64,000 nucleotides of DNA from Candidatus Multivoradales bacterium (lineage in GTDB: Bacteria; Acidobacteriota; Thermoanaerobaculia; Multivoradales; Multivoraceae): contig CBDCWI010000002.1 of assembly GCA_965223325.1 (NCBI GenBank), forward strand, positions 704,001 to 768,000. Direction: 5' to 3'. The notes below the pieces were generated by a model, which was not told the origin of the DNA, ran no database searches, and saw only the letters and a list, made by a program, of their open reading frames with translations. Shown piece after piece: positions 16,639 through 22,954 of this stretch. The first letter of the stretch is position 1, and each line of letters begins with the position of its first letter. The translations under genes were made by a program, and so were the position numbers.

Positions 16639-16788
16639 GGGCAGAACCGCCCGCACCACGCGGGGCTGTGGGGTGGGCTACACTGCCGATCCCTTTGTGA
16701 CCGACTGATTGCGCAGAGCACACTGCCTACCAGGCCGCCGCACGGCTGCCTCGAGGGCCATCGTGTGCATGCTGGAAGGAGCTTTTCG

Positions 16789-17787
16789 ATGACCAGAACC
16801 CGCCAGGTCCACCTCGCCGCCCGCCCCGAAGGCCGTCCCGATCCGAGCCACTTCAAAGTCGTCGAGATGGACTTGCCCGAACCGGGCGACGGCGAATTCC
16901 TGGTCGAGAACGAGTTCATGACGGTCGATCCGTACATGCGAGGCCGCATGCGGGACGTCAAATCGTACGTGCCACCCTTCCAGATCGACGAAGTCCTCGA
17001 CGGCGGCTCGGTGGGGCGCATTGTCAGTTCCAACAACCCCGACTGGAAAGAGGGCGAGTGGGTTCTCGGAGGCCAGGGCTGGCGCGAGCACTACATCAGT
17101 GACGGCACCGGCCAGCGCAAGATCGATCCGGAGATCGCTCCCCCTTCGGCCTACCTGGGCGTTCTGGGAATGCCGGGCATGACGGCCTACATCGGCCTGC
17201 TCGACCTCGGTGAGCCCAAAGAAGGCGAAACGGTCTTCGTCTCCGGCGCCGCCGGTGCGGTCGGCAGCGTCGTCGGCCAGATCGCCAAGATCAAGGGTTG
17301 CCACGTTGCCGGTAGCGCCGGCTCGGCTGACAAGGTCAAACACCTCATCGACGATCTCGGCTTCGACAGTGCCTTCAACTACAAAGACGGCGATCTGCAC
17401 AAACAGCTCGCCACCGCCTGCCCCAATGGCATCGACATCTACTTCGAAAACGTCGGCGGGCCGATGCTCGAAGCGGTGCTGATGCACATGAAGCCCTTCG
17501 GTCGAATCCCGGTGTGCGGAATGATCTCGCAGTACAACGCGACCGAGCCGGTCCCCGGGCCGAAGACCATCATTCAGGTCATTCCCAACCGCCTCAAGAT
17601 CCAGGGCTTCATCGTCTCCGACCATTTTGACCGGCTCCCTGAGTTCACCCGCGATGTCGCCGGCTGGATCAGGGAAGGCAAGATCAAGGCCCGCGAGACC
17701 ACCTTCGAAGGCATCGAGAAGGCACCCGATGCCTTCATCGGCCTGTTCTCCGGGGAGAACCTGGGGAAGATGCTCGTCAAGTTGTAG
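16789..17787 (+). CDS. NADP-dependent oxidoreductase (PTGR/CurA-like MDR family)
   Basis: VDPYMRGRM, GMPGMTAY, VSGAAGAVGS, YFENVGG, CGMISQYN, GENLGK. GGAAGGAG RBS. Confidence 0.9.
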   Translation: MTRTRQVHLAARPEGRPDPSHFKVVEMDLPEPGDGEFLVENEFMTVDPYMRGRMRDVKSYVPPFQIDEVLDGGSVGRIVSSNNPDWKEGEWVLGGQGWREHYISDGTGQRKIDPEIAPPSAYLGVLGMPGMTAYIGLLDLGEPKEGETVFVSGAAGAVGSVVGQIAKIKGCHVAGSAGSADKVKHLIDDLGFDSAFNYKDGDLHKQLATACPNGIDIYFENVGGPMLEAVLMHMKPFGRIPVCGMISQYNATEPVPGPKTIIQVIPNRLKIQGFIVSDHFDRLPEFTRDVAGWIREGKIKARETTFEGIEKAPDAFIGLFSGENLGKMLVKL

Positions 17788-18363
17788 CGAGGGGCGCGGT
17801 CGTCAACGATTTGGTCGTCGGTTGGCGTACCTCGAGCAAGATGCATGGTTGGCGTTCGTACCACACCCCTCGCTACAGTCACCCTTGCGGCGATCGCGGT
17901 CCGGTGTGTCGGCCGCCTTCGTGGGCGCTCGCCCTGCAGGTGCGTCTTTGGACTTTGAAGGTCCGGCGCGCGCCGCGGATTCTTGGCTTCGTTGCCGCGC
18001 TCTACGCGTCCGGAAATGGAGTCCTTTCGCATCGTGCCTGCTGACCTTGAGGGAACAGTGCGCGTCGCGGGTTCTGGCCTTCGTTGCCACGCTCTGCGCG
18101 TCCGGACATGGAGTCCTTGTGCATCGCAAATGAAGGAGTGCGTTCGGGGCAACTAACCAACCCGGCCGCGGCGGCGGGCAGCACACTCCGGCGAAAAGGT
18201 GTCAACCGGCCGTTCGCCAGGAAACCCATGCTCCCTACGCGTTCTCACGATCCACGTTTCATCGAAGGCAAGAATCCGCGGCGCGCGCTCGAACCCTCGA
18301 ACGCCAAAGACGCGCCGGCAGGGCGAGCGCCCACAAAGGCCGCCCCCACAACGGACCGCTTGG
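17783..18363. repeat. Composite REP/BIME-like element: GTAG hairpin, about 115-bp inverted arms and a 69-bp direct repeat; the right arm continues after the intron at 20273-20287
   Basis: 18-bp inverted repeat 17783-17800/17860-17877. Arm 17878-17991 is the reverse complement of 18263-18359 plus 20270-20287. Direct repeat 17966-18034/18058-18126. Confidence 0.8.
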
Positions 18364-20272
18364 ATACGCCGGGATAAACCGGCATGGAGAAAGGAATGAG
18401 AGAGTCCCACCCTCGAAGGGGTAGCGACCCAGAGGGTCCCCGAGTCATGCGCCGGCTCCCGCGAGGGTGCGGTGAAGCGTTGACAGGGGCACACACAGGC
18501 CGGGTATTGAGCCGCGAAATAAGAATTTGGGAGTGCCGACGCTGTCAAGCGAAGCGGAAGGCGAGACTCCGTAGCGCGCTATCGCGAGCTCTGCGGCGAC
18601 TCCCCGCGGTCGTAGACCCTGTGCATGTGTGGAATCTCCATGCGCGAGAACCGGGAGATCCGCGATCTGGCCAGTTGGGTATCTGGTCCGCATCGGGAAG
18701 GCTAGAGGCCGTAAGCCGATGACGCACGGATGGCGGAAGTCAGACAGGCCCGTAGTACCTGCGAAGTCGTCGAACAACGGTGGGAGACCAGCGGCGGAGG
18801 CGGTGGAGGGAAGGGGCCTGGCCAAGGGGAACACGGGCAAGCAAAACGCACCCCGGACACAGAGCCGGATGGAGAGTGCGAGCAATGCGCTGGGTCGTGT
18901 ACGAGAAGCCGCCCGCAGGGGCAAGGAAGTGAAGTTCACAGCGCTTCTTCACCACATCACGGTCGAGCGACTCCGGAGCGCATTTGACGTGTTGCACCGA
19001 GACGCAGCGGCAGGAGTGGACGGAGTGTCATGGAGCGAGTACGCAGAATCTTTGCTGAGCAATCTCGAGGACCTGCACTCTCGTGTCCACCGTGGGAGCT
19101 ACCGGGCGAGTGCGACTCGTCGCGTCTACATCGAGAAATCGGATGGGCGGTTCCGACCGCTTGGCATCGCCACGTTGGAGGACAAGATCCTTCAGCGCGC
19201 CGTCGTCTCGGTGTTGGATGCGATCTACGAGGAAGACTTTCTCGGGTACTCATACGGATTCAGGCGAGGCCGCAGCCAGCACGATGCTTTGGATGCGCTA
19301 TTCGTTGGAATCACAAAGCGGAAGGTGAACTGGGTGCTCGACGCAGACATTCGTGGGTTCTTCGATGCCCTGGACCACGAGTGGCTGGTGAAGTTTCTCG
19401 AGCACCGTATCGGAGACCGTAGGATCCTTCGCCTCATCCAGAAATGGCTGAGGTCCGGAGTGATGGAAGACGGTAAGTGGCACGCGAGCACGCGGGGGAC
19501 TCCTCAGGGGGCGACGATTTCGCCTCTCCTCGGGAACGTGTACCTGCACTACGTGCTCGATCTCTGGGTCCAGCAGTGGAGGAAACGCAACGCGCTTGGG
19601 GACATGATCTTCGTGCGCTACGCGGATGACTTCATCGTTGGATTTGAGAGGCAGGAGGAGGCAGAACGATTCCTCGAGGAACTGAACCTGCGACTCCGTG
19701 ACTTCTCGTTGGAGATCCAACCCGAGAAGACGCGCCTGCTGGAGTTTGGCCGCTTTGCGGCCTACAACCGACGCGCGCGAGGTCTCGGGCGGCCGGAGAC
19801 CTTCGAGTTTCTAGGCTTTACGCACTGCTGTGCGCAGTCTAGTCGAGGGAGGTTCTTGCTGAAGCGCATCACGAGCCGCCACCGAATCCGCAGGACACTG
19901 AAGGCTGTCGGTACGGCCCTTCTGGGACACCGACACTCGCCGCTACCAGAGCAAGGTCTCTGGCTGGGATCCGTGGTGCGAGGCTTCAATGCCTACTACG
20001 GCGTACCCGGCAACTCAGCGGCGTTGAACGCCTTTCGACAGGAGGTCATTCGGCACTGGATGCGCGCTCTGCGCCGACGCAGTGACAAAGACCGCACGTC
20101 CTGGAAACGGATGTGGGCCCTGGTGGCCCACTACCTACCCAAAGCCCGAGTCCAACATCCCTGGCCTGATGAGCGACTTGTCGTCAATACCTGAGGCAGG
20201 AGCCCAGTGCATTAGCAGTGCACGCTGGGATCTGTGCGGGGGGCGCCGGGCAACCGGCGCTCCTACCGCGAT
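18364..20272 (+). mobile_element. Group II intron (IIB, probably bacterial class E), full length
   Basis: Domain V GAGCCCAGTGC...GCACGCTGGGATC at 20200-20232. Domain VI with bulged A20265, 8 nt from the 3' AT end. EBS1 loop TCAAGCG (18545-18551) is complementary to exon CGCTTGG (18357-18363). RT ORF lies internally. Confidence 0.9.
18719..20194 (+). CDS. ltrA: Group II intron reverse transcriptase/maturase (no endonuclease domain)
   Basis: AAGVDG, RPLGIATLEDK, SYGFRRGRSQHDA, DADIRGFFD, GTPQGATISPLLGN, RYADD, FEFLGF, domain X (YYGVPGN). Ends without an HNH domain. Alternative start 18869. Confidence 0.95.
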   Translation: MTHGWRKSDRPVVPAKSSNNGGRPAAEAVEGRGLAKGNTGKQNAPRTQSRMESASNALGRVREAARRGKEVKFTALLHHITVERLRSAFDVLHRDAAAGVDGVSWSEYAESLLSNLEDLHSRVHRGSYRASATRRVYIEKSDGRFRPLGIATLEDKILQRAVVSVLDAIYEEDFLGYSYGFRRGRSQHDALDALFVGITKRKVNWVLDADIRGFFDALDHEWLVKFLEHRIGDRRILRLIQKWLRSGVMEDGKWHASTRGTPQGATISPLLGNVYLHYVLDLWVQQWRKRNALGDMIFVRYADDFIVGFERQEEAERFLEELNLRLRDFSLEIQPEKTRLLEFGRFAAYNRRARGLGRPETFEFLGFTHCCAQSSRGRFLLKRITSRHRIRRTLKAVGTALLGHRHSPLPEQGLWLGSVVRGFNAYYGVPGNSAALNAFRQEVIRHWMRALRRRSDKDRTSWKRMWALVAHYLPKARVQHPWPDERLVVNT

Positions 20273-20288
20273 CGCCGCAAAGGTGACG

Positions 20289-20326
20289 CTCGTAGGGCCC
20301 GTGGTAAGAAGCACGGGCCCTACGAG
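20289..20326. repeat. Perfect 15-bp hairpin (GTAG-type REP-like; may also terminate transcription)
   Basis: CTCGTAGGGCCCGTG-gtaagaag-CACGGGCCCTACGAG. Confidence 0.8.
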
Positions 20327-20491
20327 ACCTGAGTGAAACCTACTCAGGGAATATCCCGTATCAGGTGCGGGTTTTCTCAGTCCGTCGATGAAGATTCGCC
20401 GAAGTTGGCCTAGATTTGCTAGATTTCGGTTGCCGATACACCTTCCGTGGCCCTTCGAGGGGCGGAAGCAGCCCCTGGAAGGGAGCACACT

Positions 20492-22954
20492 TTGAGCGAA
20501 AACAAGAAGTTCACCATTCCCCTGGTTGCCCTTCGGCAGCTGGTCCTGCTGCCGGGAGTGACCCTGCCGGTCGTGGCAGGTCGTCCACGCACCCTGCGGG
20601 CAATCGACGCCGCGACGTCAGATTCCGACAACAACCCCGACCAGCTCATCTTTTGCGTGCTGCAGCGTGAAAACTCCGATGAGATCGATCCCGGCGCGCT
20701 GCACACCATCGGCACGCTCGCTCGCATCGACCAGATCCAGCGCGGTCTCGGTGGCGCACAACTCCTGGTCAGTGGCCTGAAGCGCGCCATCGCACTGCGC
20801 ATCGAAGACAAGGACGGTCACTACGAGGCCACCGTTACCGGGGCCGAGGAGATGATGCCGCAGGATGACAAGGACCTGGCCTTCGTCGCCTTGCACAAAG
20901 AGGCGCGTCAGCGGGCCAGTGAGCTCGGGCAGAAGACTGGCCTGCCGTCTGAGATCACCGAGCAGGTGCTCTCATCGGTCGATCATCCGGGACGCTTCGC
21001 CGACATGGTCGCGGGCTACCTCGATGTCGACGTCAGCGAACGACAGCGCATCCTCGAGACTCTCGATATCGAAGAGCGCCTGCGACGCATCCTGATGCTG
21101 ATCGGGCGCCAGCTGGGTGTCCTCGAAGCGCAGCAGGACATCAAGAGCGCCGTCCAGGAAGAGCTCGGTGACCGACAGCGCGAGATGTATCTGCGCGAGC
21201 AGCTCAAGGCGATTCAGCGCGAGCTCGGCGATGATGACGGCTCCGACGATGACCTAGAAGAGCTGCGTGAACGCCTCCAGGCTCTCGATCTCGAGCCGGC
21301 GGCGCGCAAGGAGGTCGACCGTGAGCTCGGCCGTCTCGGTCGCATGAACCGTGAATCGATGGAGACTCAGGTCATTCGTTCCTTCCTCGAGACGGTGGCC
21401 GAACTGCCATGGAACGAGCGCTCCGTGGATGCCCTCGACCTCCTCGCAGCGAGCGAGATCCTCGACGAAGATCACCACGGCCTCGACGACGTCAAGGATC
21501 GGGTGCTCGAGTTCATGGCGGTACGCCAAATGCGCCAACGTCGCGGCGCAGCAGAACAGGACACCGACAGCGAAAACGGCGCCCAAAGCCAGAAGCGCGC
21601 CGAAGGTCGCAGCCCGATCCTGCTCTTCTCGGGGCCTCCGGGAGTTGGCAAGACATCGCTGGCGCGCTCGATTGCACGCGCAATGGGCCGTGAGTACGTG
21701 CGCATTTCGCTCGGTGGTGTACGCGACGAAGCGGACATTCGTGGCCATCGGCGGACCTACGTTGGCGCGATGCCCGGGCGCATCATCAAGGGCATGAAGG
21801 AGGCGGGGACGCGCAATCCGGTCTTCCTGCTCGACGAAGTCGACAAGCTGGGTGCGTCCATGCACGGTGATCCGGCCGCCGGCCTGCTCGAGGTCCTCGA
21901 CCCAGCGCAGAACGACAGCTTTACCGACCACTACCTGGGTATCCCCTTCGATCTTTCCGAAGTGATGTTCATCGCGACCGCAAACTTCGTCCAGAACATC
22001 CCCGGACCGCTGCTCGATCGCATGGAAGCCATCGACTTCTCCGGCTACACCGAGGGCGAGAAGCTCGAGATCGCGCGCCGCTATCTGCTCCCGCGTCAGC
22101 TCGAAGAAGGTGGCCTGACCAGCGCGCAGCTCGAGGTCGGAGACGACGCTCTACAGGCAATCATCGCGCGCTACACCCGCGAGGCCGGCGTCAGGCAGCT
22201 CGAGCGCGAGCTCGGTCGAGTGGTGCGCAAGGTGGCCCGCAAGCTCTCGACCTCGGCACCGGAAACGTCGATCCGTCTCGATGCGGAAAGCCTCACCGAG
22301 TTGCTCGGTCGCGAGAAGGTCCACCCTGAGCGCGCCGCCGAAGCCAGCGCAGTCGGCATCGCAACCGGGATGTACTACACCCCGGTCGGGGGCGACATCA
22401 TGTTTGTCGAAGTTTCGACCATGTCGGGCAAAGGTGAGCTGGTGCTCACCGGGCAGCTCGGCGACGTGATGAAGGAGTCGGCGCGCGCCGCCTGGAGTTG
22501 GGCACGCGCAAATGCCGACCGTCTCGGGATTCCAGCCGAGCGCTTCGAAAGCGACGTGCACATCCACTGCCCCGCAGGAGCGATTCCCAAGGACGGTCCC
22601 TCCGCCGGCGTAACCATGGCCACCGCCCTGGTTTCCGCACTCAGCGGCCGCACTGCGCGTCATGACCTCGCCATGACCGGCGAGATCACGCTCTCGGGTC
22701 GAGTACTTCCGATTGGCGGCGTCAAAGAGAAGCTGCTGGGTGCTCTGCGCGCCGGAATCGACGAGGTCGTGATCCCGAAGGAGAACGAGAAGGATCTCGA
22801 CGACCTCAGCGACGACGTACGCAGTCGCCTGGAGATCACTCTCGCCGGCACCCTGGACGAGGTCCTCGACGCAGCGCTCAGCGGACCGGTCGACGCGCCT
22901 GTCCTGCATGAAGACCCGGCGGGTGGCGACGAACTGCCCGGCGAAGCGAACTGA
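20492..22954 (+). CDS. lon: ATP-dependent protease La (Lon)
   Basis: LON N-domain, [46 protein letters not shown] start after GGGAG. Confidence 0.96.

Follow-up and report, generated by a model that had tools for sequence, protein, structure and literature searches.

Why does a group II intron lie in one arm of an inverted repeat when an intron-free copy of that arm stands about 400 bp away? The question is posed by a stretch of 64,000 nucleotides (nt) from a Candidatus Multivoradales bacterium, called the window below and corresponding to G000:C2:704001-768000, where G000 is the genome (6.69 Mb) and C1 and C2 are its two contigs. A first-pass annotation had proposed that the intron uses a dispersed repeat family, likened to repetitive extragenic palindromic (REP) sequences and bacterial interspersed mosaic elements (BIMEs), as its homing target. 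Our analysis indicates that this is very probably an active, recently acquired group II intron which homes into a species-restricted, non-coding repeat.

Fourteen intron copies, thirteen of them at one nucleotide of a repeat

The genome contains 14 full copies of the intron, a 234-nt 3' fragment and a 36-nt piece. Twelve of the full copies are identical as DNA and the other two, one of which is the window's copy (T at 18895), differ by one single-nucleotide polymorphism (SNP) each; the proteins encoded by all 14 are 100% identical. Thirteen of the full copies and the 3' fragment are inserted at one nucleotide of the repeat, CGCTTG/CGCC (here and below the slash marks the insertion point), in the context ...GCAGGGCG-hairpin-ACGGACCGCTTG/intron/CGCCGCAAGAGTGA-hairpin..., and a dispersed repeat family is thus the intron's multicopy homing target, as had been suspected. 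Flanking units from different occupied loci share only about 70-80% of their sequence, which argues that the insertions were independent events and not copies of one occupied unit. The fourteenth copy, the only one in unrelated sequence, interrupts a GNAT acetyltransferase gene (Acetyltransf_3, 7.6e-28) in sense orientation, close to the gene's 5' end; this ectopic site has no repeat structure and shares just CGCTTG/C with the other sites, and position +1 is C at all 14.

The repeat is not merely a local duplication. A profile of its 150-nt core matches 173 pieces genome-wide, which correspond to about 156 units in 57 loci, and since both arms of the window's inverted repeat are members of this family their resemblance is not due to chance. 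The inverted arms described in the first-pass annotation were recovered by an inverted-repeat search as 17896-17965 with 18290-18359 (70 nt, 83% complementary) and 17966-17994 with 18260-18288 (29 nt, 93% complementary). The match does resume past the insert (17855-17900 with 20265-20310, 46 nt, 76%), and GATCGCCGCAAAGGTGAC (20270-20287) agrees at 17 of 18 positions with the reverse complement of 17879-17896.

The heptamer CGCTTGC occurs 1797 times in the genome, with 112 of these occurrences in empty repeat units, and the occupied sites comprise 13 in repeat units versus 1 among the approximately 1685 CGCTTGC sites elsewhere. With all but one of the occupied sites in repeat units, something beyond the 7-nt core must contribute to site choice. 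The full CGGACCGCTTG/C is carried by 75 empty units, and the longer CGGACCGCTTGC occurs 83 times in the genome, 75 of them in repeat units. Since the approximately 125 core-match sites that the repeat offers are in intergenic DNA, the 13 repeat-borne copies disrupt no gene.

Two partial copies were also seen. The 3' fragment (locus L015, G000:C2:4242250-4242485) is 97% identical to the intron and runs into a normal 3' half of a repeat unit, whereas the sequence on its other side is low in GC and belongs to neither the intron nor the repeat; the fragment looks like the product of a later rearrangement and not a short cDNA. The isolated 36-nt piece (L016, G000:C1:1555086-1555121) is 100% identical to intron positions 1323-1358, inside the reverse transcriptase (RT) gene.

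By BLAST identity alone the insert would span 18360-20269. However, CGCTTG/CGCC or a close variant stands in about 100 empty units, which assigns TTG to the exon and GAT to the intron; the boundaries 18363-20272 rest on the agreement of the empty units, a contig from another run (X2, below), the spacing of the bulged A in domain 6 (D6) and the 3' ends of related introns. The insert that had been drawn at about 18364-20269 is thus real, with both ends displaced, and the junction given for it, GGACCGCTTGG/CGCC, includes an extra G; correctly written, the ligated junction is GGACCGCTTG/CGCCGC, and spliced exons are predicted to read ...GGACCGCTTG/CGCCGCAA.... Intron-binding site 1 (IBS1), which had been named as CGCTTGG, is likewise one G shorter (CGCTTG).

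Among the other runs (X1 to X4), X2 carries the identical organism label and comes from a different sample. An X2 contig joins 18362 to 20273 unambiguously and with zero overlap, skipping 1910 nt that have the ends GA..AT, and it is covered to the same depth as the flanks (20.1). Contigs from X1 and X4 pass from the unique left flank into the intron. The X2 contig is the empty allele if the run is DNA and the ligated exons if it is RNA, and the junction is fixed either way.

The intron and its exon-binding site

The insert is a group II intron, as first described, by its 180.6-bit match to RF02005 (which spans the full model, positions 1-225; gathering score, 49), by a domain 5 (D5), by a D6 with a bulged A and by an open reading frame (ORF) for an RT/maturase. 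The RNA fold of D5/D6 (20190-20275) has a z-score of -3.29, and 16 relatives show this same D5/D6 arrangement plus the 3' end CCUACCGCGAY, their exons diverging beyond it. The D5 triad is AGC (D5 begins GAGCC), and the approximately 506 nt of RNA ahead of the ORF is the size found in class IIB; relatives in the PDB did not discriminate the intron class. Throughout the intron lineage a G.A opposition is present at the middle of the D5 triad helix (GAGCC...GGGAUC).

By Pfam the intron-encoded protein (IEP) contains RVT_1 only (8e-39) and has no room for an endonuclease domain, which bears out the earlier description of the intron as endonuclease-less; the proteins of relatives align with it from residue 1-6 through residue 441. 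Its nearest relatives in genome_contigs are about 65% identical, and relatives are scattered over Solirubrobacterales, Nannocystis, Myxococcales, Syntrophobacteraceae, Gammaproteobacteria and Rhizobium records. No IEP was found in the same-genus genome in a search of the taxonomic family (57 genomes including G000), and the best match in the 56 other family genomes is a 62% fragment. This distribution, together with the identity of the copies, points to an intron that probably arrived recently by horizontal transfer and then underwent a burst.

What does the intron recognize? In the Rfam alignment a 9-nt terminal loop, GUCAAGCGA, holds a hexamer that complements IBS1 (CGCUUG), and in at least seven relatives this loop covaries with the end of the 5' exon: TAAGCG with CGCTTA (L027 and L044), TATCCG with CGGATA (L025), TAACCC with GGGTTA (L030), TAACCG with CGGTTA (L062 and L060) and TGTAG with CTACA (L017). 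The loop is therefore exon-binding site 1 (EBS1), which pairs with IBS1. Two relatives in different genomes, L017 and L067, share the insertion codon of an IS630-like ORF (...KPFKWTY).

The repeat, the scarred left arm and the homing pathway

Single units are present at 19 loci, and the other loci are arrays of 2 to 9 units with a period of 199-377 nt (median 254) and a conserved core of about 150 nt; units are near-identical within an array, and arrays differ by 20-30%. We aligned 37 units, one per same-strand array (2 of the 39 representatives were left out on account of insertions), and RNAalifold finds in them one long-range helix, P1, in which GCGGCGCGCG pairs with CGC-UU-GCGCCGC. In P1 98.6% of cells are paired and at 4 pairs both partners have changed (one such pair is GC in 26 rows and CG in 10); none of 500 shuffles reaches the P1 values, slid controls fall to 23-52% paired, and an unbiased scan of column pairs detects real covariation at P1 alone. 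Compared with mononucleotide shuffles, the folded unit averages a z-score of only -0.7. The best-conserved block of the unit (...CGGAC-CGCTTG/CGCC...), which forms the 3' strand of P1, is the homing site, and it also lies about 12 nt past an internal hairpin of the unit.

Rfam returned nothing for the repeat at E<=1, either in window positions 17700-20500 or in three further array stretches. When one unit was compared by BLAST with 40 relatives, no more than four short matches emerged: three at unit positions 226-266, outside the core, and a weak one (E 8e-4) covering the homing-site region at positions 103-148. A two-block pattern of the repeat has 60 matches in G000 and none in the 56 other family genomes, and the repeat was present at 0 of 78 loci of related introns. 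Twenty-two metagenome contigs that match the two-block pattern were rejected as chance, since the family profile did not support any of them (best E 0.28). The comparison with REPs and BIMEs is apt as regards tandem reiteration and more than 100 extragenic copies, perhaps also as regards stop-supplying hairpins (below), but not as regards size, the unit being 200-380 nt and not 20-40 bp. Another short repeat, with ...GGGTCATAGAAGCGGGCTTCT...CCCTACCGCGATCT..., is found at G000:C1:1782153, C2:2017600 and C2:2019199; these three copies share an 11-mer of the intron 3' end, by chance or descent.

The left arm in the window is intron-free, as had been reported, but it cannot serve as a target. In place of the family's GGACCGC-TTG-CGCCGC it has GGACCGC-GAT-CGCCGC, a variant (CGC-GAT-CGCC) that is unique, as GAT is seen in no other empty unit listed, and its IBS1, now CGCGAT, has three mismatches to EBS1. 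GAT or GAC is the conserved 3' end of the intron lineage, and the 15-mer CCGCGATCGCCGCAA is present in the genome at eight intron 3' junctions and in the left unit only. An occupied site reads GG[ACCGC]TTG-intron...CU[ACCGC]GAU-CGCC, and a deletion from ACCGC to ACCGC removes exactly 1910 nt. Judged from these sequences, the left arm most likely once held the intron and lost it imprecisely via the ACCGC microhomologies; this loss would be older than the window's insertion, because the scar is present in X2, where the right arm is unoccupied. That the left arm never held an intron, GAT being an ordinary repeat variant or the result of gene conversion from the right arm, seems unlikely to us: other units do vary in this region (CATG, CCTG, TTGA) and the right arm's ...CCGCGAT/CGCC junction lies inverted about 400 bp off, but three simultaneous changes (TTG to GAT) match the intron's last three bases exactly, the flanking ACCGC matches the intron's ...CUACCGC so that one 1910-nt deletion suffices, the 15-mer across the scar has the restricted distribution just given, and in X2 the scar accompanies an empty right arm, making conversion from the present junction unneeded.

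Homing into the repeat may be pictured as follows; splicing, the retrohoming pathway and the source of the primer are inferred, and are drawn from group II intron biology as presented in PMC4424553. The 14 near-identical copies and the occupied and empty states of the site in different runs speak for splicing and retromobility only indirectly. The intron would be transcribed and spliced by branching. The lariat with its protein would find the site mainly by pairing of EBS1 (CAAGCG) with CGCTTG, plus further contacts, and would reverse-splice into the DNA strand on which the repeat reads in sense orientation. The cDNA would be made from a primer probably supplied by the host, since the protein has no nuclease. 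The left arm would be a former target, whose deletion scar (ACCGC-GAT-CGCC) no longer matches EBS1.

A number of observations speak against this interpretation. The kind of run is not on record, and the X2 joint might therefore be spliced RNA; coverage that is even across genes and spacers points to DNA. RF00029 (D5-D6) gave no match at E<=1. The intron's 5' end, GAUACG, departs from the GUGYG consensus; at the aligned column the relatives have GUGCG, GUACG, GUAGCG and GAAUCG, the close ones deviating too. No consistent position for an EBS2 partner of -7 to -11 was found among 16 introns by hairpin-loop alignment and exon-complementary 5-mers; GGUCCG at 18685-18690, complementary to CGGACC (-11 to -6), is an unconfirmed candidate. 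If the unit folds, IBS1 would be paired inside P1, which would hinder its pairing with EBS1. Lastly, the insertions have no replication-strand bias (9 with the fork and 6 against it, a small sample; the units split 75 to 81), and a lagging-strand-primed pathway is to that extent unsupported here.

Two side observations belong with these. Non-GUGYG 5' ends occur in several relatives (loci L017-L075), namely GAAUCG, GUAGCG, AUAGCG and AAAGCG. By cumulative GC skew the two contigs form one replicon, with contig C1 reversed, an origin near C2:3.5 Mb and a terminus near C2:0.35 Mb.

Could the structure of the unit direct insertion? Recognition of a hairpin or cruciform together with a short IBS1, in the style of class C (IIC) introns, would fit the position of the site within a covarying helix and just past an internal hairpin, the insufficiency of the 7-nt core for specificity and the failure to find an EBS2. 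We nevertheless consider it quite improbable, because the EBS1-IBS1 pairing is 6 bp long and covaries, the exons of relatives are unrelated and have no common hairpin (for example, the IS630-like ORF of L017 and L067), the ectopic GNAT site has neither repeat structure nor a hairpin and the RNA ahead of the ORF is of IIB size. Structure may still play a contributing part. A CGC triad in D5 marks IIC introns, and the triad here is not CGC but AGC. Least credible of all is a model in which a single insertion in one unit was spread by amplification or transposition of the repeat rather than by homing: the repeat does amplify locally as near-identical tandem units and is dispersed over 57 loci, but the introns are identical while their host units are strongly diverged between loci, each occupied locus has exactly one intron and 9 of the 13 hold further empty CGCTTGC units when tandem duplication after insertion would have copied the intron too, the ectopic copy is outside any repeat and shares only CGCTTG/C, and the window site is empty in X2 with the exact family junction. 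Homing by base-pairing into the repeat thus remains the reading we prefer.

The features of the locus are collected in the table below. A terminator-like hairpin with a T run is present on the + strand at window positions 20355-20371, between the right repeat unit and lon, and a sigma-70 promoter scan of 17600-20500 returned zero sites.

Table. Features of the intron locus; positions are those of the window.
Feature	Position	Strand	Evidence or remarks
ADH-type oxidoreductase gene	16765..17787	+	Pfam ADH_N_2 2.4e-40, ADH_zinc_N 2.7e-20; TAG stop (17785-17787) inside outer arm of left unit's terminal hairpin
Terminal hairpin of left unit	17783..17877	-	outer arm 17783-17800, 59-nt loop, inner arm 17860-17877; arms of 18 nt, 89% complementary (inverted-repeat search)
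Left repeat unit (core), intron-free	17855..17999	-	top nhmmer match of family profile, E 2.1e-32
GAT replacing family TTG at homing site	17893..17895	-	probable intron-loss scar
Truncated second unit (5' part only)	18043..18126	-	direct repeat of 17951-18034, 84 nt, 82% identity, spacing 92
Right repeat unit, 5' part (5' exon)	18253..18362	+	nhmmer match, profile positions 3-108; P1 5' strand at 18278-18287, IBS1 CGCTTG at 18357-18362
Group II intron, 1910 nt	18363..20272	+	GAUACG...CCUACCGCGAU (ends CCGCGAU); 14 full genome copies; X2 contig joins 18362/20273
Part of intron domain 1	18401..18619	+	Rfam RF02005 group-II-D1D4-6, 180.6 bits, E 1.1e-53
EBS1 CAAGCG	18546..18551	+	in the 9-nt terminal loop; complements IBS1 CGCUUG
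RT/maturase ORF, 441 aa, no endonuclease domain	18869..20194	+	TIGR04416, 342.9 bits vs cutoff 300, residues 37-404
D5	~20200-20232	+	GAGCC...GGGAUC
D6	~20236-20268	+	bulged A at 20265, 7 nt ahead of 3' end 20272
Right repeat unit, 3' part (3' exon)	20273..20326	+	CGCCGCAAAGGTGAC then hairpin (20289-20303 / 20312-20326, 15 nt, 100% complementary); nhmmer profile positions 104-149
lon protease gene, downstream	20447..22954	+	Pfam Lon_C 8.3e-83, LON_substr_bdg 1e-37

Terminal hairpins and relation to known systems

Arrays of the repeat end in a hairpin in which (N)TAG-N8-10-CGTGGT, on the one side, and ACCACG-N8-10-CTA(N), on the other, enclose a loop of about 80 nt (in other cases about 60 or 4). 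Its stem sequence varies between loci with complementarity kept, and its base reads (G/C/T)TAG, in which TAG is paired. In 35 of 52 good hairpins the opposite-strand frame with the best GC content at third codon positions (GC3) stops inside the outer arm, with TAG as the stop in 29, and the hairpin starts 2 nt before the stop codon of this convergent gene; at loci with TGA or TAA the matching complement is present in the inner arm. Pfam domains were found in 11 of 12 such ORFs, including those of argininosuccinate synthase, IMP dehydrogenase (IMPDH) and a class II aminoacyl-tRNA synthetase (aaRS). The same-genus genome G001 is without the repeat at the four loci compared and has the same stop codon at three of them (oxidoreductase TAG, IMPDH TAG, aaRS TGA), whereas its argG ends in TGA versus TAG in G000; its orthologue of the window's oxidoreductase also ends ...VVKL-TAG, with no repeat after it. 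Comparison of these sequences suggests that the element may insert immediately 3' of stop codons. TAG accounts for 59 of 139 stops in a rough sampling of long ORFs with high GC3, which is unusually high for a genome of 64% GC.

The genome has 28 matches to PF01797 (Y1 transposase) in ORFs of about 175-410 aa, many of them clustered in two regions (G000:C2:4455510-4486968 and G000:C1:2126128-2143849). One four-copy Y1 family (338 aa) has terminal inverted repeats of its own (GTCGGGGGGACTTTCCC), unrelated to the repeat, and a single copy of it adjoins a repeat array (C1:1243820). No REP-associated tyrosine transposase (RAYT) flanked by repeat units was found, one four-copy family among the 28 PF01797 matches having been examined.

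The guide sequences of IS200/IS605 elements offer an analogy for an inner arm that mirrors the stop codon. We raise, as a tentative and rather doubtful proposal, that the repeat is a structured, mobile single-strand element of a new kind, parasitized by the intron in a nested parasite-on-parasite arrangement. If this were true, the intron would have become a specialist of the one helix that is invariant in the element, the conserved pairing of the element would keep the homing site from drifting, its spread and tandem growth would keep supplying fresh gene-safe sites, and microhomology deletions would leave intron-immune scars.

Multicopy homing, intergenic structured targets and a loose association with REPs are already known. 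RmInt1 of Sinorhizobium meliloti homes into the multicopy ISRm2011-2 (PMC1802570, PMC4424553) and, as those accounts describe it, resembles the window's intron in its protein without DNA-binding or endonuclease domains, its multicopy cognate site and its many near-identical copies. The target of the window's intron, in contrast, is a non-coding structured repeat after stop codons and not a mobile-element gene, and there is no lagging-strand bias of the RmInt1 type (9 vs 6, a small number). Class C introns insert after intrinsic terminators or into attC sites (PMC4424553), and from that description they are likewise endonuclease-less, with intergenic, structured, multicopy targets that spare genes. 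They have a short IBS1 (3-4 nt) and insert just 3' of a stem-loop, whereas the window's intron pairs EBS1 with IBS1 over 6 bp that covary, has AGC in D5 and about 506 nt ahead of its ORF, and inserts inside a helix strand.

Closer in setting are B.c.I1 of the Bacillus cereus group, an intergenic intron at nine loci (PMC2504315), and the group II intron of Pseudomonas putida KT2440, of which two of nine copies are REP-associated (PMC1525189); in the same table ISPpu9 and ISPpu10 are REP-associated in seven of seven cases (Tobes and Pareja 2006, PMC1525189). The window's intron is like the KT2440 intron, ISPpu9, ISPpu10 and IS1397, as these are described, in using extragenic palindromic repeats as landing sites, and unlike the reported 2 of 9 in KT2440 it has 13 of 14 copies at a fixed nucleotide, a choice that base-pairing explains.

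For the repeat itself, the nearest described kind appears by analogy to be the GTAG-tagged REPs, whose termini often supply a TAG stop and whose clusters are tandemly reiterated (Di Nocera et al. 2013, PMC3733652). As far as that account goes, the likeness extends to more than 100 extragenic copies and tandem reiteration with flanking DNA, and perhaps to a (G/C)TAG-headed hairpin and the supply of TAG stops. GTAG REPs are 20-40 bp long, however, while the present unit is 200-380 nt, contains a conserved core of 125 nt and a covarying long-range helix, and has 60-80 nt in its hairpin loop; furthermore its TAG is paired and not an unpaired tag, its stems vary but remain complementary, and some of its loci have TGA or TAA. 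On the grounds of unit size, core and paired TAG, and with no RAYT link seen in the one Y1 family examined, the repeat falls outside the GTAG-REP family as defined. The review PMC4424553 distinguishes, in the portion bearing on targets, three target habits of group II introns: cognate sites (mostly genes or mobile elements), terminators and attC sites. We found in the literature, within an incomplete coverage, no homing-type intron that has a non-coding repeat family as its cognate site.

The case is a clean natural example of "safe harbour" proliferation, with 14 copies and one gene hit. About 75 perfect sites are still free, and a site that has been scarred should be immune to re-invasion. 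The intron has also brought to light a repeat family that has no match in Rfam and is anchored on the stop codons of housekeeping genes, and its interest would be higher still if the repeat proves to be a mobile element that targets stop codons.

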